From positions 1 through 63,113 of the forward strand of contig CAYMYC010000005.1 in assembly GCA_964394645.1 (NCBI GenBank): a DNA stretch of 63,113 nucleotides, read 5' to 3'. The notes under the pieces are model-generated. The model was given only the letters and a program-made list of their open reading frames with translations, had not been told where the DNA came from and did not search any database. This document shows, in pieces, positions 12,083-63,113 of the stretch (the first letter of the stretch is position 1; every line of letters starts with the position of its first letter). The position numbers and the translations under genes are program-made. This DNA comes from an uncultured Gammaproteobacteria bacterium. Lineage in GTDB: Bacteria; Patescibacteriota; Microgenomatia; Levybacterales; GWA1-39-11.

Positions 12083-12688
12083 TTATTGATACTGCTCCAT
12101 CAATTCTTGGTACTGTGAGGGATCAACGCTCGGAACAACTACACCGCTTGGCATTATTCTCATCATTTCCGATAGATCTTGGAACTTTACATTTGTAGGT
12201 GGGGTAAATAATGAATCTGAGACAACAGCAGAACGACAAGATTGCCTATATTGCTCTATCCCTTGAAGAGTCGCCTGCCCCTGAGCTGCATTCAGGTTTT
12301 GAGCATCACTTCCTGACATTTTTTTCGTATCATATTTCATCATCATACCCTGTGCACCATTCCAAAAATACATTGTGTCCTCTTTTACAATTATAGTTCC
12401 TGAATCAGCAACTTCCCTGCCTGTTATCTCCGCTCTTACTTTTCCGCTTTTAATATAAGTTTTCGTTTTCCTACCTTCACCATCTGTAAACTCACAAGTC
12501 AAACTTAAAGATTTGTTGGTGAATATATCTGAGAGTGATGAAAAAGCTGAGGATTCTTTTGATGAAGGTTTCTTCATCATAGTATCTCTCACTGCCTTAT
12601 TTGTCACGCTTTGCATATACGTGAACCCAAAAAGACCTGCAAATATTATAATTGCTACACCTATAATTACCCAAAGTCTTACGTTCAT
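12083..12688 (-). CDS. TM-anchored exported protein, paralogue of 10402-10962
   Basis: Same shared motifs as the paralogue. Confidence 0.6.
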   Translation of the reverse strand: MNVRLWVIIGVAIIIFAGLFGFTYMQSVTNKAVRDTMMKKPSSKESSAFSSLSDIFTNKSLSLTCEFTDGEGRKTKTYIKSGKVRAEITGREVADSGTIIVKEDTMYFWNGAQGMMMKYDTKKMSGSDAQNLNAAQGQATLQGIEQYRQSCRSAVVSDSLFTPPTNVKFQDLSEMMRIMPSGVVVPSVDPSQYQELMEQYQ

Positions 12689-12739
12689 ACAGTAATGGTA
12701 ACACGAAACCATACGATGTCAAGGAAGTCAATCACAGTA

Positions 12740-13081
12740 CTATTTTTTGTGAAGAATTCTTCTTAATGCATCAGTTGTCCCGTCGGATTGAGGTAAGATT
12801 CCATTTGAAGCCATTGTCCGTAGTCTATCAGAAACGTGCATACCTTGACCAGAAATACCCGTCTTTTCTTCCTGAATAAATTTTGTAACTTCTGCCTGCG
12901 TAGTCATTCCCATGACTCTGACATCTGCTTGAAACGCAAATCTGTTTTTTTTGTGTCCCGAAGTTTCTGTGGGCAAATTACCCGATTTTTTATCCTGAAC
13001 CGATCTTTTTTGCGCCAACTGAACCTTCTCCCTATTTGTTAAAGAATATTCAGAATTATTATATCTTTCTTTTGATGGCAT
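12740..13081 (-). CDS. hypothetical protein
   Basis: ORF only. Confidence 0.5.
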   Translation of the reverse strand: MPSKERYNNSEYSLTNREKVQLAQKRSVQDKKSGNLPTETSGHKKNRFAFQADVRVMGMTTQAEVTKFIQEEKTGISGQGMHVSDRLRTMASNGILPQSDGTTDALRRILHKK

Positions 13082-13185
13082 TTTTCTAATAATAGTACCT
13101 GAAACTTAATTTGTAAAGCAAGAATTAAAAATAATAAAAATATTTGAAAATCGTTTTTTCAGGTGTATAATACCAAAATATACTT

Positions 13186-13839
13186 ATGTTACGAGAAATA
13201 TTACATTCACAGAAGACCTCGGTGGTAGCACTCGATGCAAAGATGGAGGAAGAAATGTTGTTTACTCATGATTTACGATCATTGGGTCATAAAGTAACTT
13301 ATACACAAAACGCTACCGAGGCTATGAACTTTCGCCAAAAGAATGATATCTTTCTTGTCGCAGAGTCTAGTATAAAAGATTTAAAAAATGTATTTCCACG
13401 CGGAACGATTGTAGCAATACCCTCTTCTCAGCTTGCCTATAGAAAAGTTACAGAATATCTAGATAAAGGCGCGGATCATGTGCATATTACTTCTCAATCA
13501 CCTGAAGTATTATCTGCCCATATGCGATCTATACAGAATAGAATGATCAATCCAGATGTGCATAAGCCAGTGAAAAACACACATAGGCTAAAAATAGATT
13601 CTGAAAGATTAATAGTCGAAAACAATGGACAAATTATTCCAGTTACCAAAAATGAATTTGAAATACTCTTTGTACTAGCGCAAAACACAAATTGTGCTAT
13701 CCCCAATCAAGAGCTAATTTCATTAACTAATACAGATGACATAAATAAACTTAATGGAATGATAAGAAGATTACGAAAGAAAATAGACCTAGACATAGTC
13801 TACTCCACCAAAAATAAAGGGTATATGTTATCTTGCTAG
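13186..13839 (+). CDS. OmpR/PhoB-type winged-helix regulator with degenerate receiver domain
   Basis: VTKNEFEILFVLA, IRRLRKKI and KGYML C-terminal domain; the receiver lacks the canonical Asp. Confidence 0.7.
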   Translation: MLREILHSQKTSVVALDAKMEEEMLFTHDLRSLGHKVTYTQNATEAMNFRQKNDIFLVAESSIKDLKNVFPRGTIVAIPSSQLAYRKVTEYLDKGADHVHITSQSPEVLSAHMRSIQNRMINPDVHKPVKNTHRLKIDSERLIVENNGQIIPVTKNEFEILFVLAQNTNCAIPNQELISLTNTDDINKLNGMIRRLRKKIDLDIVYSTKNKGYMLSC

Positions 13840-49961: not shown

Positions 49962-50152
49962 ACACAAAATCCCTTCTTTAAAGGGTGATAAGTATTTTAT
50001 AACAAACATAGACCAAATGCAAAGCTCAACAGGCACAAAATAATCGCTTACATATTATGATAAACAATATAAAATGCATCACAGTAACTTCTAAAGTTTC
50101 TGACCATTTCTTGTTGATTTCAATCTACTAAGGTAGTACTATTGTTTCTCCC

Positions 50153-51037
50153 ATGAATTTTCGAGAAATATACTCATACAATTTGCTGAAACGCGATCTG
50201 GATAAAAAAAAGTGGATAGACCTTGCCTATAAGATAAACTTTAGGCATTCCCCAGAGCTAAGAAACCTTAAGGATGAGGAATTTCCAACTTCAGTTCTTA
50301 TCATTCCAGATGGTCAAAGAAGGTTTGGTAACGATGCCAAAATAGAAACCTCTAGGGCATACCAAATGGGGGCAGATAATTTGCTACTCCACTTAAAAAC
50401 ATTGTCTAATACGGATATCCCCACACAAACAGCTATTGCATGGGGATTCTCAACTGATAACTGGTCAAGACCACCAAAAGAAATTGATGGACTTATGACG
50501 CTTATGAATAATGCAATTCCCAAAATTGAAGAACATTTGGATTTGACTGAGGGAAGATTTATTCATTTAGGAAGAAGGCAAATTCGCAAAAATATGGCTA
50601 CAATATACAAAGATTATCCTAAATTAATTGAAAATATGCACGCTCTTGAGAAAAAGACATATAATAATTCGGGAAAAGTAATAGCATTAGCCGTTGACTT
50701 TGGTGGGCTTGATCAAGATAAAAGAACACACGAAGATGCATTAAATACAGGAACAATCTTTAAGCCCGACACAAAGGTACATTTATCTCCAGAGGATATC
50801 TGGAGATGGAGAGATTCAGCAGGACTTATAAGAACTGTTGATCTTGCTATTAGAACAGGCGAACAAATAACTGTGGGGAAAGGTATCGGAACGTTTCATT
50901 CGTCGGACATAGGATGGCTAAATGGAAAAAACACACAATGGGTAACCTACGAAAAGCGCTTCCCACAACTTACACTCAGAGATACAGCGCAGGCAATCAT
51001 CACCTATGCAAATGCTCGAAAAAAACATGGTAGCTAG
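50153..51037 (+). CDS. uppS: cis-prenyltransferase (UppS-like)
   Basis: IIPDGQRR, FSTDNWSRP, DLAIRTG. Confidence 0.75.
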   Translation: MNFREIYSYNLLKRDLDKKKWIDLAYKINFRHSPELRNLKDEEFPTSVLIIPDGQRRFGNDAKIETSRAYQMGADNLLLHLKTLSNTDIPTQTAIAWGFSTDNWSRPPKEIDGLMTLMNNAIPKIEEHLDLTEGRFIHLGRRQIRKNMATIYKDYPKLIENMHALEKKTYNNSGKVIALAVDFGGLDQDKRTHEDALNTGTIFKPDTKVHLSPEDIWRWRDSAGLIRTVDLAIRTGEQITVGKGIGTFHSSDIGWLNGKNTQWVTYEKRFPQLTLRDTAQAIITYANARKKHGS

Positions 51038-51085
51038 TTACCTATCCTCTTGCAATTTTTACGACCTTGTGCCCATAATAAATAC

Positions 51086-51682
51086 ATGAGTAGTATTCCT
51101 GGGAAAACATTAATTCTCATCTCTTTTTTAGTCACTCTAACTGTCGCCCTACTTGGACTTTCCATTTGGATTGGGTCCCAAAATAAACCAGCAGTAACTG
51201 TTGCGACAGTTACCCCTACTCCAACCGTTATGAAAACCGCTACCGTTTCTTTTTCACCTGCCATACTAGATCTTTCAACCGCCACTACACCATCAGCAAC
51301 AGTTGATATAGTTGTTGAAACAGCAGGCACTCCCATAACGGGCGTTCAAGCAGAGCTTCTTTACGATCCAAATCTAATAACAAATGTTAAGATTCTTCCC
51401 CCCGACCCTGCTAATTCTATCTTTGGAAATAATCCTGCCTCACACATGAATCTTTTTACGGACAGATCAACTTCTGGGAAATTAACATTTGCTGAAGTTA
51501 TAACTACAAATAGCACACCGGTCAGCGGAACAGGAAGCATTGGGAAATTAGTATTTAGCATAGTCAAGGGCACAAGTGCTTCAGCAAACATTACCTTTGG
51601 GAAAGAAACAAAGGTTACAACAAATACTACTCAAGAATCAATTATTAAAGATACTAAACCTCTTATAATCACCCTTCGGTAA
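51086..51682 (+). CDS. TM-anchored cohesin domain protein
   Basis: VDIVVET..ITGVQAELLYDP, GTGSIGKLVF. Confidence 0.7.
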   Translation: MSSIPGKTLILISFLVTLTVALLGLSIWIGSQNKPAVTVATVTPTPTVMKTATVSFSPAILDLSTATTPSATVDIVVETAGTPITGVQAELLYDPNLITNVKILPPDPANSIFGNNPASHMNLFTDRSTSGKLTFAEVITTNSTPVSGTGSIGKLVFSIVKGTSASANITFGKETKVTTNTTQESIIKDTKPLIITLR

Positions 51683-52124
51683 AAATTCCTCTTTCTCTTA
51701 ATTTCTTCGATTTCTTTAAAGAACAATTTTCACATCTAAATTCTGGGTTTATATCTTTTACTCTATCATATTTTGGTGTTTTAACTAATCTATAACCACG
51801 AGCAATTTTCCGACAATCCGCACATCTGATGTTTTCCTTAATCTCCCATTGTGTAGCCAGCGACTGAGACTTGAATATAAAAAGATCAACCCAAAAGAAA
51901 ATAAGACCGCCTATGAGATTTGCGATTGTTGCCGCGTACCAATCTTCAGGGGTACCAAGAATAGATGGTGAATGTTTTACCCACGCAACAATGGGCGCAA
52001 GAATTGGGGTAGAAAGTTGCCAACGGATTAAATACAGAAAATAACGCTTATATTCAATCCGCTGAAGAAAACGCCTTAGGCGTTTTTGAGGTGGAGAAAA
52101 TTCATACTTCTTCAATATCCTCAT
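51669..52124 (-). CDS. hypothetical membrane protein with C-terminal CxxC..CxxC
   Basis: CADC..CENC. Confidence 0.55.
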   Translation of the reverse strand: MRILKKYEFSPPQKRLRRFLQRIEYKRYFLYLIRWQLSTPILAPIVAWVKHSPSILGTPEDWYAATIANLIGGLIFFWVDLFIFKSQSLATQWEIKENIRCADCRKIARGYRLVKTPKYDRVKDINPEFRCENCSLKKSKKLRERGIFTEG

Positions 52125-52188
52125 ATAACTACTAGGGTTTTGTAATAATAACCTTGAAGAAGTCTATAATTAATTCTTTTAAAAAATG

Positions 52189-52755
52189 TCATCCTCGTTC
52201 TAGAGTCTTAAATGTATAAGTATATCCATTCCCTGAACTTTTTTTCTCCTCTATTACTCTTGTAAATTCTGGAAATTCAGGGAAAAAAGCATCCGCGTCA
52301 GAAAATTCACCATCTACAAAGGTCAAATATAACCTGTCTGCAAACGGAAGTCCAAGCGTAAAAATCTGCCCTCCACCTATGTCATATACTTCTGCCCCCT
52401 CTGATCTTGGATCGCGCGCACCCCTATAGTCTTCCACTTCAGAGATCTCAAGCTCTTTTCTCTTGGCAAACGCTATAGCCTCTTTCATATCCGTAAAAAC
52501 AAATACACCATCTGCTGCTTTATATTCTGGATCACGTGTCACAACTACACTTACTCTTTTTGGCATAGGTTTTCCCTTGTAGTAATGCAGTAAAGATTCA
52601 TAGGTTTTCCTCCCCATAATGTTTACATGCCCACGGGTCATGTCTCGAAAAAACTTTGCATCTTCTGGAATTTCCCAGAGCAACTTATCATCTTTTCCAA
52701 GCTCACGGTTTTTCCCGACAGCAGCAATTAGTGATACCCTTGGTTGATTATTCAT
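52189..52755 (-). CDS. folA: dihydrofolate reductase
   Basis: LIAAV, LLWEIPED, IMGRKTYES, IGGGQIF, DAFFP. Confidence 0.92.
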   Translation of the reverse strand: MNNQPRVSLIAAVGKNRELGKDDKLLWEIPEDAKFFRDMTRGHVNIMGRKTYESLLHYYKGKPMPKRVSVVVTRDPEYKAADGVFVFTDMKEAIAFAKRKELEISEVEDYRGARDPRSEGAEVYDIGGGQIFTLGLPFADRLYLTFVDGEFSDADAFFPEFPEFTRVIEEKKSSGNGYTYTFKTLERG

Positions 52756-53177
52756 TATGTCTTATTTAACAATTGATACGCATCTTCTATAACCTCTTTT
52801 GTATTTACTAGTAAATTTAGTTTAGATAAGGTTTTAACATAGACCCATTCAGGCTCAGTCTCATCACTTTTAATAAGCTCTCCTGAAGCCTCTTTTACTA
52901 AGTATACATTCCACGAGGTGGAAAGTATTTCCCCGTTTTTTCTTGGAATTTCTGCTTCATAAATTTTTGGTATCTTTATCATTGAATTTTTGTTTACTGA
53001 AAGTCCTGTTTCTTCTTCAAATTCTCTAGCAGCACCATCAAGAAGGCTCTCTCCTTCGTCAAGTCTTCCACCAGGTAATCCATATACTCCCGTGACATGA
53101 TGGGCACCCTCACCGTGTTTCACCAATAATACTTGCTCCCCTCGAATCAATAAGCCTGCAACAGTATTTACTCTCAT
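52755..53177 (-). CDS. NUDIX hydrolase
   Basis: GGRLDEGESLLDGAAREFEEETG Nudix box. Confidence 0.9.
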   Translation of the reverse strand: MRVNTVAGLLIRGEQVLLVKHGEGAHHVTGVYGLPGGRLDEGESLLDGAAREFEEETGLSVNKNSMIKIPKIYEAEIPRKNGEILSTSWNVYLVKEASGELIKSDETEPEWVYVKTLSKLNLLVNTKEVIEDAYQLLNKT

Positions 53178-53184
53178 ATATACA

Positions 53185-54201
53185 TTAACCTGACATCTTA
53201 CCAGTTTTCTTGTCATATAGACCACCTGCAACGGTCAACTCTGCTTTCATCATTGGATATGGATCATAATCTAAGAGCTCTACATCTTCCACTTTAAAAT
53301 CATCAATTGATTTAATTTTTCGTTTTATTTTAATCTTTGGAAATGGTCTTGGTTTTCTTTCTAACTGTTCTTTCACTTGTGGAATATGATTCTCATAAAT
53401 ATGAGCGTCTCCAAAGGTGTGCACAAATTCTCCCGGCTCAAGATCCATAATATTTGCCAAAATAATGGTAAGGAGTGAGTAAGATGCGATGTTAAACGGA
53501 ACACCCAGGAAAAGATCAGCACTTCTTTGATATAGCTGAAGTGATAATTTATTTCCGCGCCTGCTTACTTGATACATATTGTGGCAAATTGGAAATCTGT
53601 TGGCTTCTTTCTTAAGAGCCATTGTATACATGTATTCCGGGTTCCAAGAGGTCACAATTGCGTTTTTTGCATCCGGATCTTCTTTTAATTCCTGCATAAC
53701 CCAGGACAGCTGGTCAATAGTCCGAGGTTTCTTGGCTTGCCCTGCCTGCCCCGAGGAACGAGGGGAGCTTGCCGAATGGGTGGGCCAAGCTCTCCACATT
53801 TCCCCGTATATATGAGGTAAATTCCCCCATTTTTTAGCAAACTTTTCATTTGTCTTTATTTCATCAATAAATTCCTCTTTCGTGTATTTATTTTTTGGAT
53901 TTCTTGTTTTGAAAATCTTGTATGGGTAATCATCCCAAATGTGGACATTATTATCTACCAAATATTTAATGTTTGTATCCCCGCGCATAAACCATGCAAG
54001 TTCATGGATAACGCCTCTCCAATACACTTTTTTTGTAGTAAGAAGTGGAAATCCCTGAGAAAGATCGTATCTATTCTGACGACCAAACAAACTATAAAGT
54101 TTTATGTCTGTCCCACGATCTACCTTACGCTCCCCATGTTCCAAAGCCTCTTTTAAAAGATCTAAGTATTGGTATTCAGGATGTCTATTCGTTCTACTCA
54201 T
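53185..54201 (-). CDS. thyA: thymidylate synthase
   Basis: DRGT, FPLLTTK, PICH, QRSADLFLGVPFNIASY, HIYENH. Confidence 0.95.
   Translation of the reverse strand: MSRTNRHPEYQYLDLLKEALEHGERKVDRGTDIKLYSLFGRQNRYDLSQGFPLLTTKKVYWRGVIHELAWFMRGDTNIKYLVDNNVHIWDDYPYKIFKTRNPKNKYTKEEFIDEIKTNEKFAKKWGNLPHIYGEMWRAWPTHSASSPRSSGQAGQAKKPRTIDQLSWVMQELKEDPDAKNAIVTSWNPEYMYTMALKKEANRFPICHNMYQVSRRGNKLSLQLYQRSADLFLGVPFNIASYSLLTIILANIMDLEPGEFVHTFGDAHIYENHIPQVKEQLERKPRPFPKIKIKRKIKSIDDFKVEDVELLDYDPYPMMKAELTVAGGLYDKKTGKMSG
53734..53781 (-). repeat. nested REP-like in-frame insertion in thyA
   Basis: A 27-nt ACCCATTCGGCAAGCTC|AGGGCAAGCC unit is interrupted by a 21-nt GC-rich unit; encodes THSASSPRSSGQAGQA. Confidence 0.65.
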
Positions 54202-54211
54202 AATACTTACC

Positions 54212-54649
54212 AATACTACCAATTACAAATAAACAAATCAATGAATGGATCACTTCTTTTTTGTATTTAAAATAATAGTGCTAACAATTTTTATAATTTC
54301 TTTATTCTCTTGCATCAAGCCTTCCATTCTTGGTTTAAACGTAGGATTAGTATCAGCAATTATGCGCAGCCAATAATATGTTTCTTTCCCTTCTTTTCTG
54401 ACAATTGTATATTTTGAAATAAAATCCTTTTTGCTATCCGTACCATCTGCCTCCTGATCATTTGCGCCCATAGATGTGGAAGAGCGAGTAATTTGATTAA
54501 TTAAAATTAAATTCTCCTGATTCTTAGGTAATTTTTTCACAAGATTAATTACTCGGATTACAAACTGATAGATTCTTTCGTGAATATCAACTACTTTCTC
54601 CCCATTTTGCATTTTACTTTGATTGGTAGTATTTGATTATTTGTTTATT
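54212..54649. repeat. complementary repeats bracketing the four-helix-bundle gene
   Basis: AATACTACCAAT 54212-54223 vs ATTGGTAGTATT 54622-54633; AATAAACAAAT 54228-54238 vs ATTTGTTTATT 54639-54649. Confidence 0.75.
54250..54612 (-). CDS. four helix bundle protein (23S rRNA IVS protein family)
   Basis: QITRSSTSMGAN..EA..SKKDF..KEGKETYYWL. Confidence 0.85.
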   Translation of the reverse strand: MQNGEKVVDIHERIYQFVIRVINLVKKLPKNQENLILINQITRSSTSMGANDQEADGTDSKKDFISKYTIVRKEGKETYYWLRIIADTNPTFKPRMEGLMQENKEIIKIVSTIILNTKKK

Positions 54650-54656
54650 GGGTTAT

Positions 54657-55217
54657 TCAAATCTGACGTTCTTTTTTTGTTGCGGCGACTCGCCCCCCTT
54701 GCCATTGCCCCCTATACATATTTCCTCCACCGGCAACTTCTGAAAATTGAATATGTACAAAACGTGCACCCATCTCAATTGTGACAGTTACAGGTCCTGC
54801 ATTGTACAAGCCAAACGTAAGTCCTCCACAATATCCCGGCGGAACATTCCCGGTTCTTAACATAAGACCCGAACGATATGTTGTGGATCGAGGAGTAATG
54901 CTTGCAGTTAGATCTTCCGGCATATTTACGTCTTCTATAGTTTTTACTAAATAAAAATCTCCTGGCTTTATAATAAGAGAGCTTTTTTTCACGTGCTCTG
55001 AGCCTGTCGCAGGGTCATACTTTCTAACAAGCTTTACATCAGCCGTATGTCTTTCCGTAACTCCTAAAAACGCTTTTTTACCTATAATTTTAAATGCTTC
55101 ACCAAGACGCAAATCAAACCCTGCTCCTTCTGGGTTTGTTAATTCACGTTCTGAGAGATTTTCAACAAGTTTTTTTTTCTTAACTAGTTCAAGAAGTGTT
55201 TTTGGTCCAAGTATCAT
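54657..55217 (-). CDS. dCTP deaminase/dUTPase-family paralogue
   Basis: GFDLRLG, PRST, PGY.G, GARF. Confidence 0.75.
   Translation of the reverse strand: MILGPKTLLELVKKKKLVENLSERELTNPEGAGFDLRLGEAFKIIGKKAFLGVTERHTADVKLVRKYDPATGSEHVKKSSLIIKPGDFYLVKTIEDVNMPEDLTASITPRSTTYRSGLMLRTGNVPPGYCGGLTFGLYNAGPVTVTIEMGARFVHIQFSEVAGGGNMYRGQWQGGRVAATKKERQI
54994..55015 (-). repeat. second, degenerate copy of the thyA REP-like unit, in frame
   Basis: ACCCTGCGACAGGCTCAGAGCA matches the thyA outer unit at 18 of 22 aligned positions plus one gap. Confidence 0.55.
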
Positions 55218-55252
55218 ACCATAGATCCTTTCTGGGCAAGAGCTGTCAACTA

Positions 55253-55933
55253 CTATTTAAGTTTTATTTGAGAGATAAGTTTTTTTGTCACTTCGTCTAT
55301 ATTTCCTTCACCGTCAACTATTGTTATTTCCTCAGGAAATTTTTTTTGTACAAATTCATACCCCGTGATCAACTTTTCAAGCTTATTTTCATCTTCATAT
55401 ATCTCTTTTTCATCATCTTTTGTAGTGATCCTACCCATCGCTGTTTTCAAACCTATCCGTAAGTAAATAGAATAATCTGGAACTGTAAACTGATGGTACA
55501 TAGAAAGAATAGATTGTGTTATTAAAAGCAAATCGGCATCATTTTTATCATATTCTCCCCCACTCCTATCAAGGATTCCATACACAATAGCTGACCAAAA
55601 ACACCTATCAGTGATAACTACTTTCCCAGCTTGCAGGGAAGGCAAAACAAGCTCTTCATGATGAGCTGACCTATCAGCAGAAAAAAGATATTGCAGGGAA
55701 ACAGAGGGTAACTTTTCTGTTCCTAAAAGTACCTTCTGAACTAAATCTCCAATAAGACCTTCTTTTCTTGGCTCGCGCGTTGTCACTACTTCTTTCCCCT
55801 GTGATCTGTAGTACGCTGCGAGTTTTTCAACCTGAGTAGTTTTTCCCGATCCATCAATTCCCTCTAATGCAATATATGTGCCACGGTAAGGATTTTTTTT
55901 GAGTTCTATGTCAAAATTAATATTGTATTTCAT
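55253..55933 (-). CDS. tmk: thymidylate kinase
   Basis: EGIDGSGKTTQ, TREP, LFSADR, DRCFWS. Confidence 0.93.
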   Translation of the reverse strand: MKYNINFDIELKKNPYRGTYIALEGIDGSGKTTQVEKLAAYYRSQGKEVVTTREPRKEGLIGDLVQKVLLGTEKLPSVSLQYLFSADRSAHHEELVLPSLQAGKVVITDRCFWSAIVYGILDRSGGEYDKNDADLLLITQSILSMYHQFTVPDYSIYLRIGLKTAMGRITTKDDEKEIYEDENKLEKLITGYEFVQKKFPEEITIVDGEGNIDEVTKKLISQIKLK

Positions 55934-56023
55934 AAAAAAATATTACACTTTACTTGCTACTAGCTGCTCTCTTACGCGATCTTACTTTTCGAACTTTAGT
56001 GAGAACAAGGAAGATTTATGTCT

Positions 56024-56593
56024 TCACTTTTCCACATGAATCTTACTCTCAATCGGTCCTTCTTGCATGACGTATTTTGCATCCTGGCGTTTGTTATAGG
56101 GGTTTTCCGAGGAAGAACTTAATTCCTCAAAAGTCATTGCGCAAATTCTCATCCCAGGCGTAAGAGCTACTGCCATACGACCTAAGTTTCCAAGCTCTAA
56201 TACGCACTTCCCATTCCACCCGGGATCAAAAATAGAAGCAGTCGAGTGAACAACTATTCCCATTCTCCCCAAAGATGAACGCCCCTCCAGTCTCCCCATG
56301 AGGTTGTCAGGAATTGTTATTTTTTCCATAGTCACGGCAAGCACAAAATCCCCTGGCTGCATAATAAACTGGTCAGCACCTTTCAACTCTACTTCTCGTG
56401 TTATATCTGCACCATAATCCTTTTTGTATGGATCGATAAATGGATATTTACTGTGATCAAAAATCCTAAACAGGTTCCCTAATCGTAAATCTATAGAGCA
56501 AGATCCTAATTGTGTTGAAATATCAGGCTGTGGCGAAATAATAATTCTCTTATCCTCTAGCGCCTTTTTTATATCCCTATCTGAAAGTACCAT
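56024..56593 (-). CDS. dcd: dCTP deaminase
   Basis: SIDLRLG, EGRSSLGR, DPGWNG..VLEL. Confidence 0.9.
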   Translation of the reverse strand: MVLSDRDIKKALEDKRIIISPQPDISTQLGSCSIDLRLGNLFRIFDHSKYPFIDPYKKDYGADITREVELKGADQFIMQPGDFVLAVTMEKITIPDNLMGRLEGRSSLGRMGIVVHSTASIFDPGWNGKCVLELGNLGRMAVALTPGMRICAMTFEELSSSSENPYNKRQDAKYVMQEGPIESKIHVEK

Positions 56594-56709
56594 AATTGAA
56601 AAAAACTGATCCTATTAAAAGTTAACGGTATGGAACAATACTATCCAAATCCCAATAATTTCGCAAGTAACATTTTCTGCTTGCAAAATAAAAAAAACGT
56701 TACTATGAT

Positions 56710-57156
56710 ATGTATGGAATGAAAATTGTAGAAAAACACTCAATCGGATATGTGCTCGGAAAAGCACTTTTTTCCTCTCCTCAAAGAACTATCAGTGTTT
56801 TTTTTGTATTGTTTGTATTAGGTGCTGTTCCCTTAACATTTTATCTTGCAAACCAACAGCAGGATATACGACAACAAGCAGCAGATAGTACTCCCGCATG
56901 CATCTTTACACCGGGAACTATAAGACCAGGGGAAACATCCGAATTGCTAGTAGTCTCATATCCATATGCGCCTGAACCATACATGGAACCTGCTGACGGA
57001 TACTCAATTGTTGAAAAAAGGGGGGACACAATAATCTACAAATTGGATAAACCTGGAACTACCTGGAAAATATCATTACTAGATCCATCAAACCCTATGA
57101 AAAATAACTTGCCAAATGCGTTGGCATCCTGCACTGTTTCAACAACTGAATACTAA
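56710..57156 (+). CDS. TM-anchored exported protein with QQQDIRQQAA motif
   Basis: TM helix followed by NQQQDIRQQAA. Confidence 0.6.
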   Translation: MYGMKIVEKHSIGYVLGKALFSSPQRTISVFFVLFVLGAVPLTFYLANQQQDIRQQAADSTPACIFTPGTIRPGETSELLVVSYPYAPEPYMEPADGYSIVEKRGDTIIYKLDKPGTTWKISLLDPSNPMKNNLPNALASCTVSTTEY

Positions 57157-57236
57157 GTGTAGAATTCCGTGCTTGTGTTTAAATATACCCAGGTCATGCT
57201 CTTGCAAATAGAAAAAAATCTTCCTATGATTAGTAT

Positions 57237-58196
57237 ATGAATCCGAGCACTGTTGGAAATATTATTGAAGAGCTTTTTCTCTCATCAAAAAAAAGAATCA
57301 TAGGATCTATAGTGATTACAATTCTTATTCTTTCTATTCCAGTAACGGTTATGCTCACAAATCAGCAACAAGATATACGTCAGCGCGCGGCTTCCGTAGA
57401 TTTCACATCAGTAAGTTCAGATTCAGAAAATCCATCCCCAAGCCCGACGCTAGTTAAGTACTGCGGAGGAGATGATCATGTCTCTTGCGAAGTCGGACAA
57501 TATTCTTGCTGGCAGTATATTCCATCTGGTCCCTATCAGGGAACTTTTGCAAAATCATGTCAAGTATCCCAGGACGCGCCAAATCAGATTAACTGCATCC
57601 AATGCATTATGGTTACTCCTAGTCCTACAAGAAAACCTTCACCATCCCCTGCTCTAAGCGCAACCCCATCCATATCACAAGGAACAACGGTCGCTCTTGC
57701 CATTACACTCCCTGGGATTGGTCCTAATACCACATTAGGAGAAAATAATGAACCTCAGCACCTCTCTAGATCATTTGATGTATACGCATATGACGGGGAG
57801 AATCACGAAGCAGAAAAAACTACAACTACTCTTACCTATAACAATGGCGTATATAGCGGAAACGCCACATTTAACACTATTGCAAGCGGACCATATACCA
57901 TAAAGGTAAACGCTACAAATTCACTCATAAAAGCAGTTCCTGGAATTCATCAACTGTCGCAGGGAGCAACTGTAAATATACCTCCTGTTGTACTCGTCTC
58001 AGGTGATATCAGATCTAATGGCTCTTCAAAAAATCTATTAGACATAGATGACTATTCTATTCTTTTATCATGCTATGCTAAAACAGATTGCACAAACGAA
58101 TATAAAATACTTTCTGACTTAAATGATAACGGCGTTATGGATCCTCGGGATTTAAATATACTCCTTCGCGGCTTCGCGACCAGAAAAGGCGACTAA
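57237..58196 (+). CDS. exported protein with QQQDIRQRAA motif and C-terminal dockerin-like domain
   Basis: GDIRSNG..IDDYSIL and SDLNDNGVMDPRDLNILL duplicated Ca-binding motifs. Confidence 0.7.
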   Translation: MNPSTVGNIIEELFLSSKKRIIGSIVITILILSIPVTVMLTNQQQDIRQRAASVDFTSVSSDSENPSPSPTLVKYCGGDDHVSCEVGQYSCWQYIPSGPYQGTFAKSCQVSQDAPNQINCIQCIMVTPSPTRKPSPSPALSATPSISQGTTVALAITLPGIGPNTTLGENNEPQHLSRSFDVYAYDGENHEAEKTTTTLTYNNGVYSGNATFNTIASGPYTIKVNATNSLIKAVPGIHQLSQGATVNIPPVVLVSGDIRSNGSSKNLLDIDDYSILLSCYAKTDCTNEYKILSDLNDNGVMDPRDLNILLRGFATRKGD

Positions 58197-58267
58197 TTTC
58201 TTCTTGACTCTTTTTACCTTTCTCTCTACTATAAAGGTGTACCCGAATTTATCGGTTTTATATCTTT

Positions 58268-59119
58268 ATGGATCCACAAAGTCAATTTAAAGACAGATAC
58301 GAAAAATACGTTCAGCAAAGGAACTCCCAGATGCTAAACACTGTAAACATTCCCCCATCTTCTAAAAAATTTTCCCCTAATAAATTTTATGTCCTAGGAA
58401 TTATACTAGGAATTCTTGTTATTGCTCCCATTGGTGCATTTTTGTTTTTATCAGATCAACTGAATAATCCAACACAAAATACAGTAAGCGTTGAAGAAAA
58501 ATCTCTTACATCACTTTCATCAAACGATGAAATAGATCGCGAAATGCAAAAAATATGGGGTCCTTATTACGAGCAGGCAAAAAACGATCCAAAACTAAGA
58601 GCTGCAGCATCAGAAAATATTCAACTTAGACAAGCCGCGCTTAAGGCAGGCGTTTCAAATTCTAAGATTTCCTCCGCCGAAAATACTAGCTACCAAGAGG
58701 TTCAAAATAAAACAGAGGAGAACTTAGAAAAACAAGTTGTTAACTCAAGAACTATAGACTTTGTAAGTGTTTTTAAAAACCCGCTTAGCACCAACTATGA
58801 ACAAGAAGCAAGTAAAGCAGTAGATACATTAAATCAAATACGCGCACAAACTACGCAGGGAAAAAACTTAGAAGAAGCCTATGCCCAAGTAAAAAATTCA
58901 GCCAGCTTTGACCCTACTATAAAACTTTTCACAAACGAATATATAACAAAAAATTCAGGCTGGAATCCATTATTTAAGGATGCTATCTTCATGCTCAAAC
59001 CCGGTCAAACATCTCAAGTTTTAGTTTCGCCTGGTGGTGCAATCATACTAGCCTACGTTAAAGAAGCAAATGATTCAAAATATGATACCGTAAATCAGTA
59101 TATCAATAATTCAAAATAA
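58268..59119 (+). CDS. TM-anchored PrsA/PpiC-like foldase candidate
   Basis: FKDAIFMLKPGQTSQV..GAIILAYV. Confidence 0.5.
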   Translation: MDPQSQFKDRYEKYVQQRNSQMLNTVNIPPSSKKFSPNKFYVLGIILGILVIAPIGAFLFLSDQLNNPTQNTVSVEEKSLTSLSSNDEIDREMQKIWGPYYEQAKNDPKLRAAASENIQLRQAALKAGVSNSKISSAENTSYQEVQNKTEENLEKQVVNSRTIDFVSVFKNPLSTNYEQEASKAVDTLNQIRAQTTQGKNLEEAYAQVKNSASFDPTIKLFTNEYITKNSGWNPLFKDAIFMLKPGQTSQVLVSPGGAIILAYVKEANDSKYDTVNQYINNSK

Positions 59120-59120
59120 T

Positions 59121-60122
59121 ATGAATCAAATAACAAAAATATTTATAGGAGTTGTATTTTTTATAGCACTCTATCTTATTGGCACAACTACTTCCGAAAA
59201 CGTTGCGTGCGCAAGAAGCTGGGATACCTGTCCAGGAGCAGGAAACGTACCTGTCTCAGAGATTTATCCCGGGCAAAACTATGTAGATTCAGTAGGTCTT
59301 AATTTTAAGATAACCGGTAAGAATATTCCCCCAAATCAGGTCTTCCGAATAGATGTCGGAGCAGCTGCCTGCACCAGTGAAGTAAAATGCTTGAAAAGAT
59401 CTGATTCGACTACAACCTCTCCATTTAACGGAACCGCATCATATGGAAATATCCAAACAATTGGCTGCAGCTCAGGAGGCTGTGATGACAATCTTCAGGT
59501 AAATGCTTATTTTTCAGGCGGATCATTTAACGGCACATGTAAGGTATATGCAGGTGATGGAACACCTGATGTACTTCTTCCAGACGCAACACAGTCAGAA
59601 AATATTAAAAGTAGAAATGGAACGGAAATGTCTTTCTTCTTTTATTTTGATTGCGATGCTCCTTTAGAGCCGACTCCTACTATAACTCCTACTCCTGGCG
59701 TTACCGTAACACCCAAAATCACCATAACTCCTACCGTAGGAGTAACTCAGCCACCTGGAAACACTCCACCACCAACAAATACACCTGGAACCCCTACTCC
59801 TACGCTAGCGTGTCCTATTCCCGCAACCCCTGTTAAAGTAACGGTAACATGCATTGGGTGTGATGGCGGTTCAAACCCGATACCTACTCTTACCCCGACA
59901 CCTATTACAAGCGAACCAACTCCTACGGGAAGTGGAGAATCGGTAACACCAACAGGGAATCAGCCTACAACTACCCCAAGAGTCCCTACACCTACTATTG
60001 ACAATAGCAATCCTAAAGGAAAGCCGGGAGAGGCATGCAATCTTCCTACAGATTGTATAAGTGGTATTTGTAAACAAATTAGCCTGCCAGGCTTACCGAT
60101 AATACAAAAAGTTTGTCAATAA
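59121..60122 (+). CDS. exported Pro/Thr-rich protein with Cys-rich modules
   Basis: Signal peptide, PT linkers, terminal GEAC..C.SG.C module. Confidence 0.65.
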   Translation: MNQITKIFIGVVFFIALYLIGTTTSENVACARSWDTCPGAGNVPVSEIYPGQNYVDSVGLNFKITGKNIPPNQVFRIDVGAAACTSEVKCLKRSDSTTTSPFNGTASYGNIQTIGCSSGGCDDNLQVNAYFSGGSFNGTCKVYAGDGTPDVLLPDATQSENIKSRNGTEMSFFFYFDCDAPLEPTPTITPTPGVTVTPKITITPTVGVTQPPGNTPPPTNTPGTPTPTLACPIPATPVKVTVTCIGCDGGSNPIPTLTPTPITSEPTPTGSGESVTPTGNQPTTTPRVPTPTIDNSNPKGKPGEACNLPTDCISGICKQISLPGLPIIQKVCQ

Positions 60123-60123
60123 T

Positions 60124-60834
60124 ATGAACACAAAACTTAAGAAAAAAATACTTATTATAGGAATTCTTGCATTAGTGATTCTTATTCCAACACTAATCTT
60201 TCTTATTCAAAAACTAACCACACCTCAACCTCCCCAAAGAATCTCACAAGCTCCCAACGCATGCCCAATAGATGGTGGAAAATGCTCATGGAGCACTGTA
60301 TCAGGTGCAACTTCATATGACTATAAAATTATAGATCTTTCAACAAATACTCAATTACTTGCAGGCAACACAACGTCAACCTTTATTACATTTCAACCGG
60401 AAGATGGAAAAAACTACAGATGTGAAGTTATAGCAAAAAATACATGCGGATCCAGTGGTGTAGGCGTTGGTACGGGATCTTGCACTATTCTACCTCCAAC
60501 TGTCACTCCTACACCTACCGTTCCTACACCTACACCAACACCTACTCCTACACCTTCGCCCACACCAACAAAAATACCTACACCTACACCAACACCTACT
60601 CCTACACCTTCGCCCACACCAACAAAAATACCTACACCTACACCAACACGACCTCCTGTTGTGGTCAATCCACCGGTAAATAACCCGCCTCCAATTGTAA
60701 ATAATCCGGTTATTCCAACTACTCCACCTATTCAACCTACTATCCCGCCAAGTGGATCCATAGGTGCAACCGTAGGAATTGTAGGTGGAATTATAATTAC
60801 TGTTATAGGTGGAATCATTATCTTTCTCCTCTAA
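60124..60834 (+). CDS. exported FN3-like + Pro/Thr repeat protein with C-terminal IPPSG + TM tail
   Basis: WSTVSGATSYDY..Y.CEV.A.N.CG; PT repeats; hydrophobic C-terminus. Confidence 0.7.
   Translation: MNTKLKKKILIIGILALVILIPTLIFLIQKLTTPQPPQRISQAPNACPIDGGKCSWSTVSGATSYDYKIIDLSTNTQLLAGNTTSTFITFQPEDGKNYRCEVIAKNTCGSSGVGVGTGSCTILPPTVTPTPTVPTPTPTPTPTPSPTPTKIPTPTPTPTPTPSPTPTKIPTPTPTRPPVVVNPPVNNPPPIVNNPVIPTTPPIQPTIPPSGSIGATVGIVGGIIITVIGGIIIFLL
60523..60649 (+). repeat. perfect 54-bp coding tandem repeat (about 2.3 copies)
   Basis: The unit encodes PTPTPTPTPTPSPTPTKI. Confidence 0.9.
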
Positions 60835-60955
60835 ATACGCGGTGTTGTCTTCATGCGTACTTTTTTGTTAAAATATCAGATCAAGTAATTATGTCGGGGA
60901 TTTTTATCTCAACGTAAACAAAACTTGCGATGGTCATCCCTTTAATAGGATGCGC

Positions 60956-62722
60956 CTAAAAACTCTTTACTTGTGGACTTTGTCCACGAAAATGAACTTT
61001 TACAATTAAATTTTTCTTGAAATCGTTAATACCGAGGGTCGTTAGTTCAGCGGTAGAACGCTTTCCTGTTCTAATTTTTTGGGCGCATGGCTCAGGGGTA
61101 GAGCACGTTCCTGATAAGAACGGGGTCCTTGGTTCGAATCCAAGTGCGCCCACCAACAACGAACTAATCGGCTTTTTTGAAGCCAACATGCGGGACGCGC
61201 GAAGCGCGTCCCAATGGTTTCTGCCTGAATTTCGCCCAGAATCCAAAGGGGAATTCGCCAAAAATGAATCCAAATCCGGCGCGCTTGCGCGCACCTGTTT
61301 TTCGCCGAGGAGGAGGTTCGAGCCAAAGATTTCTTTGGCACAGACCTTTTTCGCAAAAAGGTCTGAATCAGAAGCAATTTTGTCTATATTTTGTGCGACT
61401 TCTATCCAGTTTTGGAAAGGTTCGAGCCAATCATTTTGCTTGTGTGAAAGATTGTAGATTTCTTCTTCGAGTGACTTCTTTTCGGATAACAGTTTTCCTT
61501 TCTGTAAACGATAATCTTCGCGGTCAATATCTTGCTCCAAGTAGCCAGTAAGAAGTCGCTCTAACTTTTGCGACAAAGAAGAAATCTTTTCTTGCTTCTC
61601 TTTTACACAAGCAGTTAAAGACTGGGCGGATTTTCCGTGGTCTTGCAAAGCAAGACGATTGAGTTCCACCGCCCAGTCTTTGGGCAAAGAAACTTTTTTG
61701 ATTAGGGATGATAACTGGTTGTCTAATTCCTCTTGACGAATACAAGGTTCTTCACACTTTATGTTTTTATTTTTCTTGGTGCAGTGGTAATATACATACT
61801 CGTGGACATTTCCGTTCTGCTGTTTCTTAACCTTGTATTCGCCAGTTATCATCATTCCGCATGAGGCGCAGGAAATTAGGCCACAAAAAGGTTGAGGGTC
61901 ATTTATGGGCTTTCTGTCAGGTTTACCGCGAAGTTTCAACATTTCCTGCGCCTGATCAAAAAGTTTCTTTGAAATGATTGGCTCGTACTTTCCTTCGTGG
62001 AGTTCGCCACCATAGCGAAATAGTCCTGTATAAAACGGGTTGGAGAGAATTGAAGTTGCACGGGATTTATGGATTCTCTTTCCGGTTTTTGAAAATAGAT
62101 TGTGCTTCGCCAAAAAGTTTGAGACATCTTCCAGTCTATTGCCGCCTTTTACATAGAACTCAAATGCTTGCTTGATAACCTTGGCTTTCTTTCTGTCAAC
62201 AACCACAGTTTTTGTTCGTGAGTCGTTGATATATCCGACAGGAGCAAGCGTTGGATAATCTCCGTTACGAACTTTTTGGCGTAAACCTCTTTTGGTATTT
62301 TCGGAAAGAGAATCTACATAGTATTTGCTTTGACCGAAAGCCACATTCAACATAAATTTTCCTTGCGAGGTGCTATCGCACCAGAAAGTTGGAAATTTAA
62401 GGCTCACAAGTTTCCCTGTGTCGAGGAGGTAGATTACCTTTCCACCGTCAATACTATTTCTTGCGAGACGATCCGGATGCCAAGAGAGGATAGAATCTGC
62501 ATCGCCCTTTTCAATACACTTCATCATTTCGTTAAATATGGGACGACCTGGAATTTTGGCAGATTGTTTTTCTATAAACTCTTGGGCGATGTTCAGATTT
62601 TCTCTCTTGGCATAGTCTCGCAATTCTTGGAGCTGTGCCTCAATACTCAAAACCTGCTTGTCCTCGACATCAGTGGACTTGCGAGCATACAAAAAGAATT
62701 TTTGCGAAGATATATTATTCAT
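60956..62722 (-). CDS. large serine recombinase (resolvase + recombinase + zinc-ribbon domains); last 64 aa are a read-through of antisense tRNA and host DNA
   Basis: YARKST, DRLARN, APVGY, ILSNPFYTG, CASCG..YYHC; the tail GALGFEPRT is the antisense of a tRNA T-arm. Confidence 0.93.
   Translation of the reverse strand: MNNISSQKFFLYARKSTDVEDKQVLSIEAQLQELRDYAKRENLNIAQEFIEKQSAKIPGRPIFNEMMKCIEKGDADSILSWHPDRLARNSIDGGKVIYLLDTGKLVSLKFPTFWCDSTSQGKFMLNVAFGQSKYYVDSLSENTKRGLRQKVRNGDYPTLAPVGYINDSRTKTVVVDRKKAKVIKQAFEFYVKGGNRLEDVSNFLAKHNLFSKTGKRIHKSRATSILSNPFYTGLFRYGGELHEGKYEPIISKKLFDQAQEMLKLRGKPDRKPINDPQPFCGLISCASCGMMITGEYKVKKQQNGNVHEYVYYHCTKKNKNIKCEEPCIRQEELDNQLSSLIKKVSLPKDWAVELNRLALQDHGKSAQSLTACVKEKQEKISSLSQKLERLLTGYLEQDIDREDYRLQKGKLLSEKKSLEEEIYNLSHKQNDWLEPFQNWIEVAQNIDKIASDSDLFAKKVCAKEIFGSNLLLGEKQVRASAPDLDSFLANSPLDSGRNSGRNHWDALRASRMLASKKPISSLLVGALGFEPRTPFLSGTCSTPEPCAQKIRTGKRSTAELTTLGINDFKKNLIVKVHFRGQSPQVKSF
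61036..61067 (+). pseudogene. 5'-half tRNA relic (Val-like, identity uncertain)
   Basis: GGGTCGT-TA-GTTC-AGCGGTA-GAAC gives the acceptor 5' strand and a complete D-arm, then breaks off. Confidence 0.65.
61081..61155 (+). tRNA. tRNA-Ile(GAU)
   Basis: Full cloverleaf: GGGCGCA/TGCGCCC, D-arm GCTC/GAGC, anticodon arm CGTTC-CTGATAA-GAACG, T-arm CTTGG-TTCGAAT-CCAAG, encoded CCA. Confidence 0.95.
61151..61322 (+). repeat. inverted repeat copy A (172 bp)
   Basis: 100% identical to the reverse complement of 62891-63062 (compared base by base). Confidence 0.95.
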
Positions 62723-62740
62723 ATAAATTTTGAAAACTTA

Positions 62741-62824
62741 AATGGCCGCTCTTGGGGCGCCCACAATGATTGCTCAAAGTGGCCCAAAAACGGCCATTAA
62801 AATAAGCAATCACTATGTGGGCGC
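62741..62824 (-). ncRNA. structured 5' leader of the recombinase (long stem + pseudoknot)
   Basis: 9+8 bp stem (62757-62774 with 62805-62824); an 8-bp loop pairing (62791-62798 with 62741-62748). Confidence 0.5.
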
Positions 62825-62830
62825 GAATTT

Positions 62831-62858
62831 AGTATAGCAAAAATTCTTTTTATATCAA
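62831..62858 (-). promoter_or_regulatory. sigma70-type promoter of the recombinase
   Basis: TTGATA-16-TATACT. Confidence 0.6.
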
Positions 62859-62874
62859 AGCAAATACTATGAGT

Positions 62875-63062
62875 CAAAATTGCTTCTGATCTCGAACCTC
62901 CTCCTCGGCGAAAAACAGGTGCGCGCAAGCGCGCCGGATTTGGATTCATTTTTGGCGAATTCCCCTTTGGATTCTGGGCGAAATTCAGGCAGAAACCATT
63001 GGGACGCGCTTCGCGCGTCCCGCATGTTGGCTTCAAAAAAGCCGATTAGTTCGTTGTTGGTG
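62875..63062 (-). repeat. inverted repeat copy B (172 bp plus a 16-bp block, lacking 44 bp present in copy A)
   Basis: 62875-62890 matches 61367-61382; 61323-61366 is absent; followed by the alternative tail YLLYQVRTHFQNR* ending at 63104. Confidence 0.9.
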
Positions 63063-63113
63063 TATTTATTGTACCAAGTTAGAACCCATTTCCAAAATCG
63101 GTAATGTGGCACG

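Follow-up and report, generated by a model that had tools for sequence, protein, structure and literature searches.

Why should a recombinase gene carry an exact, inverted copy of its own 3′ end just upstream of itself? The question is raised by the right-hand end of contig CAYMYC010000005.1, which was analyzed over its whole length of 63,113 bp (the window). There a large serine recombinase (LSR) gene converges on a tRNA-Ile gene, and the 172 nt that begin at the tRNA 3′ end are repeated in inverted orientation on the far side of the recombinase; the sequence stops 51 nt past this second copy, at 63113. It is fairly probable, in our judgment, that the locus is the integrase end of a mobile element that targets tRNA genes and carries two inverted copies of its attachment site, attP, one used in integration and one still intact.

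The repeat is as the earlier note on this DNA had described it, identical throughout and starting with the last five bases of the tRNA, CACCA. A repeat finder and BLAST agree on a pair of arms at 61151–61322 and 62891–63062, 172 nt in length, 100% complementary and separated by 1568 nt. The inner boundary of the second arm lies at 62890/62891, not at 62874/62875 as first placed. Because a match of this length is perfect, a chance origin is excluded. The tRNA-Ile gene is intact in the window and its CCA comes from the element, as in insertions at tRNA 3′ ends that restore the tRNA. The features on which the argument depends are these:

61081 to 61155, forward strand: tRNA-Ile(GAT), the proposed integration target and B side of attL (ARAGORN; Rfam tRNA, 67.4 bits)
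61151 to 61154, forward strand: CACC, the attL core, where identity to the empty-site contig L001 (to 61154) overlaps identity to copy B (from 61151)
61151 to 61322: copy A, or arm q, comprising the last 57 recombinase codons before the core; P′ side of attL
61170 to 61184, 61192 to 61212 and 61279 to 61292: hairpins H3, H2 and H1 of copy A
60956 to 62722, reverse strand: LSR open reading frame (ORF), 588 aa, of which residues 1–524 (61151 to 62722) are the family protein
60956 to 61150, reverse strand: recombinase residues 525–588, a read-through into the antisense of tRNA-Ile and beyond
61323 to 61366: 44-nt recombinase 3′ stretch without counterpart in copy B, bearing two palindromes
62723 to 62890, reverse strand: region U, between copy B and the recombinase start
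62858 to 62831, reverse strand: predicted recombinase promoter in region U, TTGATA-16-TATACT
62757 to 62824, reverse strand: hairpin of the recombinase 5′ untranslated region (UTR), in region U (−43 kcal/mol, z = −5.3)
62891 to 63062: copy B, or arm q-bar, the inverted P′ side of the proposed intact second attP, with core GTG at 63060–63062
63063 to 63113: start of arm p, the P side of the inverted attP, up to the contig end
63063 to 63104, forward strand: alternative recombinase tail YLLYQVRTHFQNR, then a stop codon, encoded by arm p
63095 to 63068, reverse strand: promoter-like site in arm p, TTGGAA-16-TGG-TACAAT, directed into copy B
62911 to 63062, reverse strand: predicted transcription unit of about 150 nt, starting at the core and ending at H1 and a T-run (62934 to 62911)

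A sister genome provides the empty site. An ENA contig of 36,961 bp (L001) is 99.991% identical to window positions 50124–61154 and then diverges completely: behind its tRNA-Ile gene come CAAAAATTAGCGGGCACGAAAGTGCCC and a hairpin and, further on, a tRNA-Cys gene and a 16S rRNA gene. Because L001 diverges at this point, the sequence from about 61155 rightward is an insertion at the 3′ end of tRNA-Ile. The four bases CACC (61151–61154) are common to the empty site, attL and copy B, and the crossover would fall within CAC, or tRNA positions 72–74. The contig stops exactly 55 nt into GGTG plus arm p (63059–63113), and the attR predicted from L001 (…TTTTTGGGTG followed by p) would contain exactly this 55-nt stretch. 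The stop at 63113 would then be a branching vertex at k = 55, a value of k that is assumed.

On its outer side copy B passes into arm p, and an ORF on the forward strand (62880 to 63104) runs through copy B to end in …SSLLVYLLYQVRTHFQNR and a stop codon. Joined to this p-encoded tail, recombinase residues 1–524 give a protein of 537 aa. Compared with the 3′ end of the recombinase gene, copy B is missing 44 nt (61323–61366); beyond this gap similarity runs on, the reverse complement of 62868–62890 matching 61367–61388 at 21/23 positions (BLAST). The start of region U, ATCAGAAGCAATTTTG, is also found in other members of the family, and the 44-nt gap is therefore ancestral rather than a product of local decay. 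The missing block holds two perfect palindromes, CCAAAGAtttCTTTGG and CAGACCTTTTTcgcAAAAAGGTCTG (11-bp stem), that lie inside a highly conserved coding stretch, SDLFAKKVCAKEIFG.

The assignment of the 588-aa protein to the LSRs follows from its three domains: Resolvase (PF00239, residues 10–155, E = 3e-22), with the serine nucleophile motif YARKSTDVEDKQ in the translation; Recombinase (PF07508, 178–264, E = 8e-15); and Zn_ribbon_recom (PF13408, 278–338, E = 2e-8). Its alignments to the structures of SPbeta SprA/YokA (9dxh, E = 7e-9) and the A118 integrase (4kis, E = 8e-7) are weak but significant, and the enzyme is only distantly related to the LSRs that have been studied. There are 7971 database homologs at E ≤ 1e-10. 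The best 120 of them are 63–95% identical and essentially full length, come almost all from bins of Patescibacteria (the Candidate Phyla Radiation, CPR), and agree as far as …KKPxSSxLV, beyond which the tails fall into two classes. In about 71 of the 120 the frame runs on into the T-arm of one tRNA or another, read in antisense (GIEP, GFEP, GLEP and similar). The tail xL(L/F)YQxRTYFQN(K/R) that is encoded beside copy B is present in at least 21 of the 120, a recurrence that bears out the earlier suggestion of an attP-type junction at the outer edge of copy B. The 90%-identity cluster of the window protein holds both classes.

The arrangement recurs in relatives. The comparison took in 86 loci: 80 from GTDB, 5 from a protein look-up, and the window. 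An inverted repeat between the upstream region of the recombinase and its own 3′ end, for which the earlier note had asked that CPR genomes be searched, is found in 64 of the 86, typically 147–185 nt in length and 76–100% identical. In most metagenome-assembled genomes (MAGs) the recombinase gene starts 130–500 nt from a contig end, and the repeat at that end is often 55, 77, 99, 119 or 141 nt long, as expected where a de Bruijn graph meets a genuine repeat.

Nine mid-contig loci, including L020, L030, L041, L065–L067, L071 and L080, display the remainder of the element. In these a second pair of inverted repeats, of 150–405 nt, directly adjoins the first and encloses a variable cargo of 1.4–2.8 kb, different in each. 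With the recombinase (int) on the top strand, and slashes marking the junctions with host DNA, the map is: host B′ / p – cargo – p(inverted) – q(inverted) – U – int – q / tRNA(−). The junctions of B′ with p, of q with inverted p, and of q with the tRNA share only 3–10 nt, and their minimal common core is GTG/CAC, tRNA positions 72–74. When B′ is placed directly against the tRNA, a normal tRNA 3′ end results, with its terminator behind it in L041, for example. Since the shared core is minimal and attB is rebuilt, the three junctions are identified as attR, an intact inverted attP, and attL.

Searches with the other arm lead to the same picture. A scan of JGI metagenomes for the p-arm motif yielded 30 further loci; p is joined to q in 8 and to unrelated host DNA in about 20, the host side always ending in (G)GTG. 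One of the loci (L089) repeats the layout of the window, again at tRNA-Ile(GAT). In another (L085) the p arm is nearly identical to the 51 nt of the window and continues into a 1256-aa ORF and then an inverted second p arm, with about 3.8 kb of cargo between the p arms. By comparison with this relative, the sequence beyond 63113 would probably consist of an L085-like p arm, cargo and an inverted p arm, and would be expected to lead into the …CAAAAATTAGCGGGC of an L001-type flank. Neither the L001 downstream region nor the L085 cargo occurs elsewhere in the window.

Taken together, the loci occupy more than 20 tRNA isoacceptors, and a short shared motif may explain how. In the tRNA, the GAAC of the universal T-loop is 15 nt away from the core; the p arm has a conserved (T)TAGAACC at a distance of 19 nt. 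Zinc-ribbon motifs of LSRs are shifted outward by about 5 bp in attP relative to attB. A GAAC common to the T-loop and the p arm, displaced as in attP, would make the targeting of many tRNAs explicable.

The recombinase is the only gene conserved among the elements. No directionality factor and no second conserved gene were identified in them, and the cargo differs at every locus. It includes genes for a Zeta-toxin-like kinase and for SocA/Panacea, NYN, HD, methyltransferase and bPH_2 proteins, and, by eye, an XRE-type regulator; the cargo examined revealed no functions in replication or transfer. At the window end and in four full loci, Rfam detected tRNAs and nothing else. Since IMG/VR has no close relatives, a phage origin is unsupported. 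Several single GTDB MAGs have two copies at different tRNA genes (L035/L038, L055/L065, L037/L057 and L053/L063), and the family is thus multi-copy within genomes. Some carriers lie in bins labelled Gammaproteobacteria, Planctomycetales or archaeon, labels that probably reflect binning contamination.

These observations suggest the following course of events. A small element, about 3.5–6 kb in complete relatives, would have been inserted at the 3′ end of tRNA-Ile by its LSR through an attP located inside the 3′ end of the recombinase gene. The used attP would thereby have been split into attL (tRNA joined to q, copy A) and an attR (p joined to host DNA) that should lie beyond the contig end, leaving the spare attP, made up of copy B and arm p, intact just upstream of the recombinase. 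Excision would give a circle in which the integrase and cargo segments are separated by two q+p inverted repeats of about 320–570 bp, each with an attP core at its center. The integrase segment sits between inverted arms that include the core, so exchange between the arms would flip it and convert one attL and attP pair into another. The gene would become co-directional with the tRNA, and its tail would change from tRNA antisense (588 aa) to element-encoded sequence (537 aa). The flip might be made by the recombinase or by RecA-type homologous recombination, or its outcome might be set by the choice of attP at integration; both integrated states could also be reached if the other attP were used for integration, or if the circle were in its other isomeric form. 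The circle is inferred, as are whatever makes the flip and any difference in function between the tails.

Both orientations occur in nature. The state of the window, with an inverted attP upstream and a tRNA at the recombinase 3′ end, is seen at 29 further loci in which both sides are readable. The opposite state is seen on a 149-kb contig (L054), where a tRNA-Leu on the forward strand, ending …GGGCACCA, is joined directly to the upstream arm; the recombinase is co-directional with this tRNA, its tail is SLFYQARTFFQNR, and a p arm comes next. The arms of this locus are 147 nt long and 100% identical. Two other loci, L012 and L059, start as L054 does, but their contigs stop inside the recombinase gene. 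The geometry that had been predicted for the window, a co-directional gene and 537 in place of 588 residues, is correct, and L054 is that flipped state elsewhere. The idea of a minimal two-state switch is supported only in part. Its geometry stands, as do the existence of both states and the maintenance of identical arms, but the description is incomplete and the locus is no minimal switch: the repeat is one of two adjoining pairs in an element that also has cargo and an attR, and it relates an attL to a spare inverted attP.

A number of observations weigh against this explanation. The attR of this genome was not recovered: a homolog search with the L001 gene beside the empty site returned only proteins of at most 81% identity, and the exact L001 downstream sequence had no match in JGI metagenomes. 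The exact 537-aa flipped protein is absent from a collection of 15 billion proteins, and no second p arm was seen within 4 kb in L054. The repeat itself is absent at four loci with ample upstream sequence (L013, L014, L069 and L070). Where both sides of a locus can be read, the window-like state outnumbers the flipped state by roughly 10:1; any flipping that takes place is therefore out of equilibrium. The two orientations were found only in different genomes, and with short reads a segment flanked by repeats longer than k may be assembled the wrong way round. To our knowledge, characterized LSRs recombine only attP with attB, or attL with attR together with a directionality factor, and do not recombine attP with attL or with another attP. 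For that reason homologous recombination over 150–170 identical bases is the conservative choice of flip agent.

The arms themselves carry a record of exchange. Within a locus they are identical at a median of 99.3% of positions, 18 of 38 pairs being perfect, whereas between loci the same 140 nt have a median of only about 24% identical positions. Arms that are nearly identical within loci and diverged between them must be homogenized, which requires continuing exchange. The duplication is nonetheless old, since in distant members region U still opens with a relic of the gene's KIASD codons.

The sequence of the arms appears to serve more than one purpose. The q frame is open up to the core in 64 sequences, and length variants of 129–195 nt are all multiples of three. 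Though coding, the arm forms three GC-rich hairpins. H2 is paired in 98.6% of cases, with compensatory changes at 5 of its 9 pairs and none ever broken, a result equalled in 0 of 500 shuffles. In H3, G·U cells outnumber A·C cells by 37 to 6 on the tRNA-sense strand, which is antisense to the recombinase, and this excess indicates RNA-level selection on that strand. H1 often has a cUUCGg loop, again on the strand antisense to the recombinase; RNAalifold applied to the whole arm recovered only H2, and MAFFT misaligns H1, which was accordingly judged by eye. In arm p, the promoter-like motif TTG(G/A)AA-16-TGG-TAnnnT is kept in 74 of 91 distinct p arms, a count partly biased by the 30 that were retrieved with an overlapping pattern. 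Variation occurs only at −10 positions 3–5, and 5 nt separate the end of the −10 element from the core. Transcription from this site would start at the crossover point, cross q and end at H1 and its T-run. This would yield a transcript of about 150 nt that is complementary to the 3′ end of the recombinase gene and has the same sequence as the trailer of tRNA-Ile, because the predicted unit (62911–63062, reverse strand) also lies 3′ of tRNA-Ile on the forward strand (61151–61302). The placement of the p-arm promoter thus suggests an antisense control that would be rewired by recombination.

It is possible, though we would not put it at even chances, that regulation of this kind is the main reason for the duplication, the p promoter directing a structured RNA of about 150 nt against the last 150–170 nt of the recombinase mRNA, and that inversion is incidental. 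An upstream p+q unit would preserve the antisense RNA once integration splits the other copy; a predicted recombinase-binding site would overlie the promoter, while copy A would give rise to the same RNA as the trailer of the tRNA. The site at 63095–63068, the terminator-like hairpins downstream in both copies, the conserved promoter motif, the covariation in H2, the G·U excess in H3 and the loop of H1 all fit such a role. Other features fit it poorly. The T-run lies about 6 nt from the H1 stem and also encodes a conserved GEK motif; a single-sequence fold of the 160-nt antisense-strand RNA is not better than its shuffles (z = −1.4); the open q frame with only in-frame indels implies that its conservation is partly protein-coding; the pattern used to retrieve 30 of the 91 p arms overlaps the promoter motif; and the second repeat pair around the cargo is left unexplained. 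The regulatory proposal is compatible with an integrated element bearing two attP copies and does not exclude it.

The other alternatives make the repeat something else entirely. If the 1912 bp from the tRNA core to the outer end of copy B (61151–63062; q inverted, U, int and q) were an insertion sequence with 172-bp terminal inverted repeats and the recombinase as its transposase, one could account for the many homologs on contigs of 1.7–2.1 kb and for L019, and probably L043, in which tRNA sequence lies on both sides. Such short contigs, however, are what a de Bruijn assembler produces for a segment between repeats, and at 29 loci and in the window the DNA outside the upstream arm is the conserved p arm, not target DNA. 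With inverted sites a serine recombinase brings about inversion, not excision. The enzyme is, moreover, an integrase, there is no sign of a target-site duplication, and the three junctions fit a cross between attP and attB; a stand-alone insertion sequence is thus quite improbable and was rejected. The earlier proposal that copy B is the decaying remnant of a second, head-to-head element or recombinase copy gains something from the missing 44 nt and from a similarity that fades after a further 23 nt. A remnant would decay, but the arms of each locus evolve in concert, the same truncation, including ATCAGAAGCAATTTTG, is conserved among members whose recombinases are 65–95% identical, and where copy B meets p there is an intact attP, accompanied by a conserved promoter-like site. 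The tRNAs, the cargo and the phylum-level bins differ, so the recurrent loci are not one clonal sequence. This proposal, too, was rejected, and we hold it to be more improbable still. Least credible of all is a fold-back or chimeric assembly, a caveat raised because the repeat sits at the very end of a MAG contig: 1568 nt with a unique, intact gene separate the arms, the same layout lies mid-contig in the products of different assemblers, including contigs of 100–200 kb (L041, L054, L066 and L067), and at some loci the arms are imperfect, at 76–97% identity. With recurrence in 64 of 86 loci, the artefact was rejected as well.

With an integrated element accepted as the most probable explanation, a more general and distinctly more tentative proposal may be considered: that twin inverted attP sites are a design found throughout the Patescibacteria, in which an integrase recognizes the T-loop and acceptor end of tRNAs, a promoter sits at the crossover point, and segments flip or are exchanged. 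The crossover promoter would transcribe the integrase antisense RNA in attP and host DNA in attR, and the integrase and cargo segments would flip or would pass as cassettes into convergent tRNA pairs. Cassette exchange by twin attP sites would explain integrase-less cassettes and modules lying between two tRNA genes, and candidates for both were encountered. In L019 (3695–5610) the recombinase module lies between a tRNA-Arg on the forward strand upstream and a tRNA-Leu on the reverse strand downstream, with arms 87.6% identical; L070, and probably L043, likewise have tRNA genes on either side. Such a module would be the expected product of a cross between the internal attP and a second tRNA gene. 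In L088 (4804–9281) inverted p arms enclose about 4 kb of cargo, and in L098 (11967–13891) purD lies between inverted p-like arms beside another p arm, with no recombinase nearby at either locus. In L090 a solitary junction of B′ with p, from position 852, is followed by 12 kb without a recombinase. The p arms at host DNA in these three loci look like integrase-less cassettes or scars. In L045 and L084, p is present on both sides of the recombinase; attP-type junctions flank that of L084 (9600–11755), and the differing p arms (TGTTTATTAAACCATATCAGAACC… upstream and TGTCTTTACGACTTTGCTCGAACC… downstream) suggest tandem or nested elements.

Comparison with characterized systems shows that the components (LSR integration, tRNA targeting, inverted-repeat segments and an attP inside a gene) are all of known kinds; it is their combination that is new. 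The enzyme shares catalytic, recombinase and zinc-ribbon domains with A118, SPbeta SprA, Bxb1 and phiC31 and with TnpX and TndX, and its attP and attB are likewise identical over only a few bases. The p-side GAAC, about 4 nt further from the core than that of the T-loop, recalls the shift of about 5 bp between LSR attP and attB sites. The present elements differ from those systems in having attP within the recombinase coding region, in targeting the 3′ ends of at least 20 tRNA isoacceptors, and in retaining a second, intact, inverted attP.

The overall plan has a parallel in the yeast 2-micron plasmid, in which FLP acts at FRT sites in 599-bp inverted repeats, together with chloroplast flip-flop recombination. 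Common to these and to the circle envisaged here, which the integrated maps of the nine mid-contig loci imply and with which L085 is compatible, are two unique segments and a target in each repeat; as in the 2-micron plasmid, the recombinase is encoded in one unique segment and the repeats evolve in concert. In contrast, the enzyme here is a serine rather than a tyrosine recombinase, the element is seen integrated whereas its circle is inferred, and no replication genes are recognizable in the cargo. A role in amplification, as in the 2-micron plasmid, is unlikely. The serine invertases (Salmonella Hin, Mu Gin, P1 Cin and PinQ) also have the recombinase gene in or beside an inverted-repeat segment with two states and different outputs; the hin gene lies inside its own invertible segment. 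As in invertons, the crossover site is part of the repeat, the core sitting at the outer end of each 172-nt arm. The Hin and Gin type are small enzymes (about 190 aa) that use short hix or gix sites and an enhancer, whereas here an integrase of 524 aa is associated with arms of 150–170 nt. Moreover, the repeat overlaps the 3′ coding end of the enzyme itself, and one arm is an integration junction.

A link between attP placement and gene expression is also known. In mycobacteriophage BPs, attP lies within the repressor gene, and integration alters the C terminus of the repressor (PMC4557955, PMC3694055). Both BPs immunity and the sib retroregulation of lambda resemble the present case in tying the 3′ end or the expression of a gene to the integration state; they depend on tyrosine integrases and lack an inverted second attP, and what integration affects is the repressor in BPs and an RNA site past int in lambda. 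The tycheposons of Prochlorococcus, a minority of which use an LSR, are small elements at tRNA genes with variable accessory or defence-type cargo, and the paper on them describes no inverted attP and no inverted-repeat-flanked cargo (bioRxiv 10.1101/2020.12.28.424599). Most have tyrosine recombinases, many have replication genes, and they leave a long direct tRNA repeat in place of the core of only 3–10 nt found here. Insertion sequences differ in the respects already given, namely the p arm adjoining the upstream arm, the lack of a target-site duplication and the type of enzyme. In synthetic recombinase-mediated cassette exchange, two inverted attP sites flank a cassette, and convergent tRNA pairs that share a terminator would offer the corresponding inverted attB sites; that scheme is engineered, and its natural use by the family is only a possibility suggested by L019, L088 and L098.

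Full-text literature searches yielded no account of a naturally occurring LSR element that carries a second attP in inverted orientation, nor of this family, which is apparently an undescribed and widespread group of tiny mobile elements situated behind tRNA genes in Patescibacteria. With 7971 proteins it is very common there, and it breaks Patescibacteria assemblies systematically at tRNA genes. Its recognition should improve the finishing of MAGs and the annotation of variable cargo, including toxin–antitoxin and nuclease-type genes. If the interpretation is correct, this is a natural serine-integrase element with two inverted attP sites, one of them embedded in the reading frame of the integrase, so that the C terminus of the enzyme, antisense transcription and gene orientation would all be tied to the recombination state; the twin-attP design would be a natural counterpart of recombinase-mediated cassette exchange. 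An intact attP in an integrated element could drive inversions or deletions between tRNA genes in very small genomes. An integrase that acts at the conserved 3′ end of tRNAs, on many isoacceptors and through small, delimited att sites, would also be of interest to genome engineers.

Some features of the locus and its neighborhood fall outside this argument. In relatives the stem of the recombinase 5′ UTR hairpin changes in sequence while its pairing is, by eye, retained; a second pairing, between the loop AATGGCCG and CGGCCATT just 5′ of the start codon, appears to be retained in the same way. Together they suggest an interleaved or pseudoknot-like regulatory structure. In L001 the 16S rRNA gene (12130–13770, reverse strand) lies, by eye, about 1 kb from the empty tRNA-Ile site and contains an AT-rich block, at about 12860–12990, that resembles an insertion. 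Just upstream of tRNA-Ile, at 61030–61075 on the forward strand (L001 10906–10950), the sequence GGGTCGTTAGTTCAGCGGTAGAACGCTTTCCTG… resembles the 5′ half of a tRNA, with acceptor, D-arm and anticodon stem but no 3′ half. It is common to the occupied and empty genomes and could have been left behind when this tRNA cluster was rearranged at an earlier time. Further upstream, the gene that served as the query leading to L001 (60124–60834, forward strand) encodes a protein of 236 aa with an N-terminal membrane segment, a Pro/Thr-rich stretch and a C-terminal hydrophobic anchor, which is probably a surface protein; its Pro/Thr-rich stretch is encoded by tandem 54-nt repeats (60523–60654).

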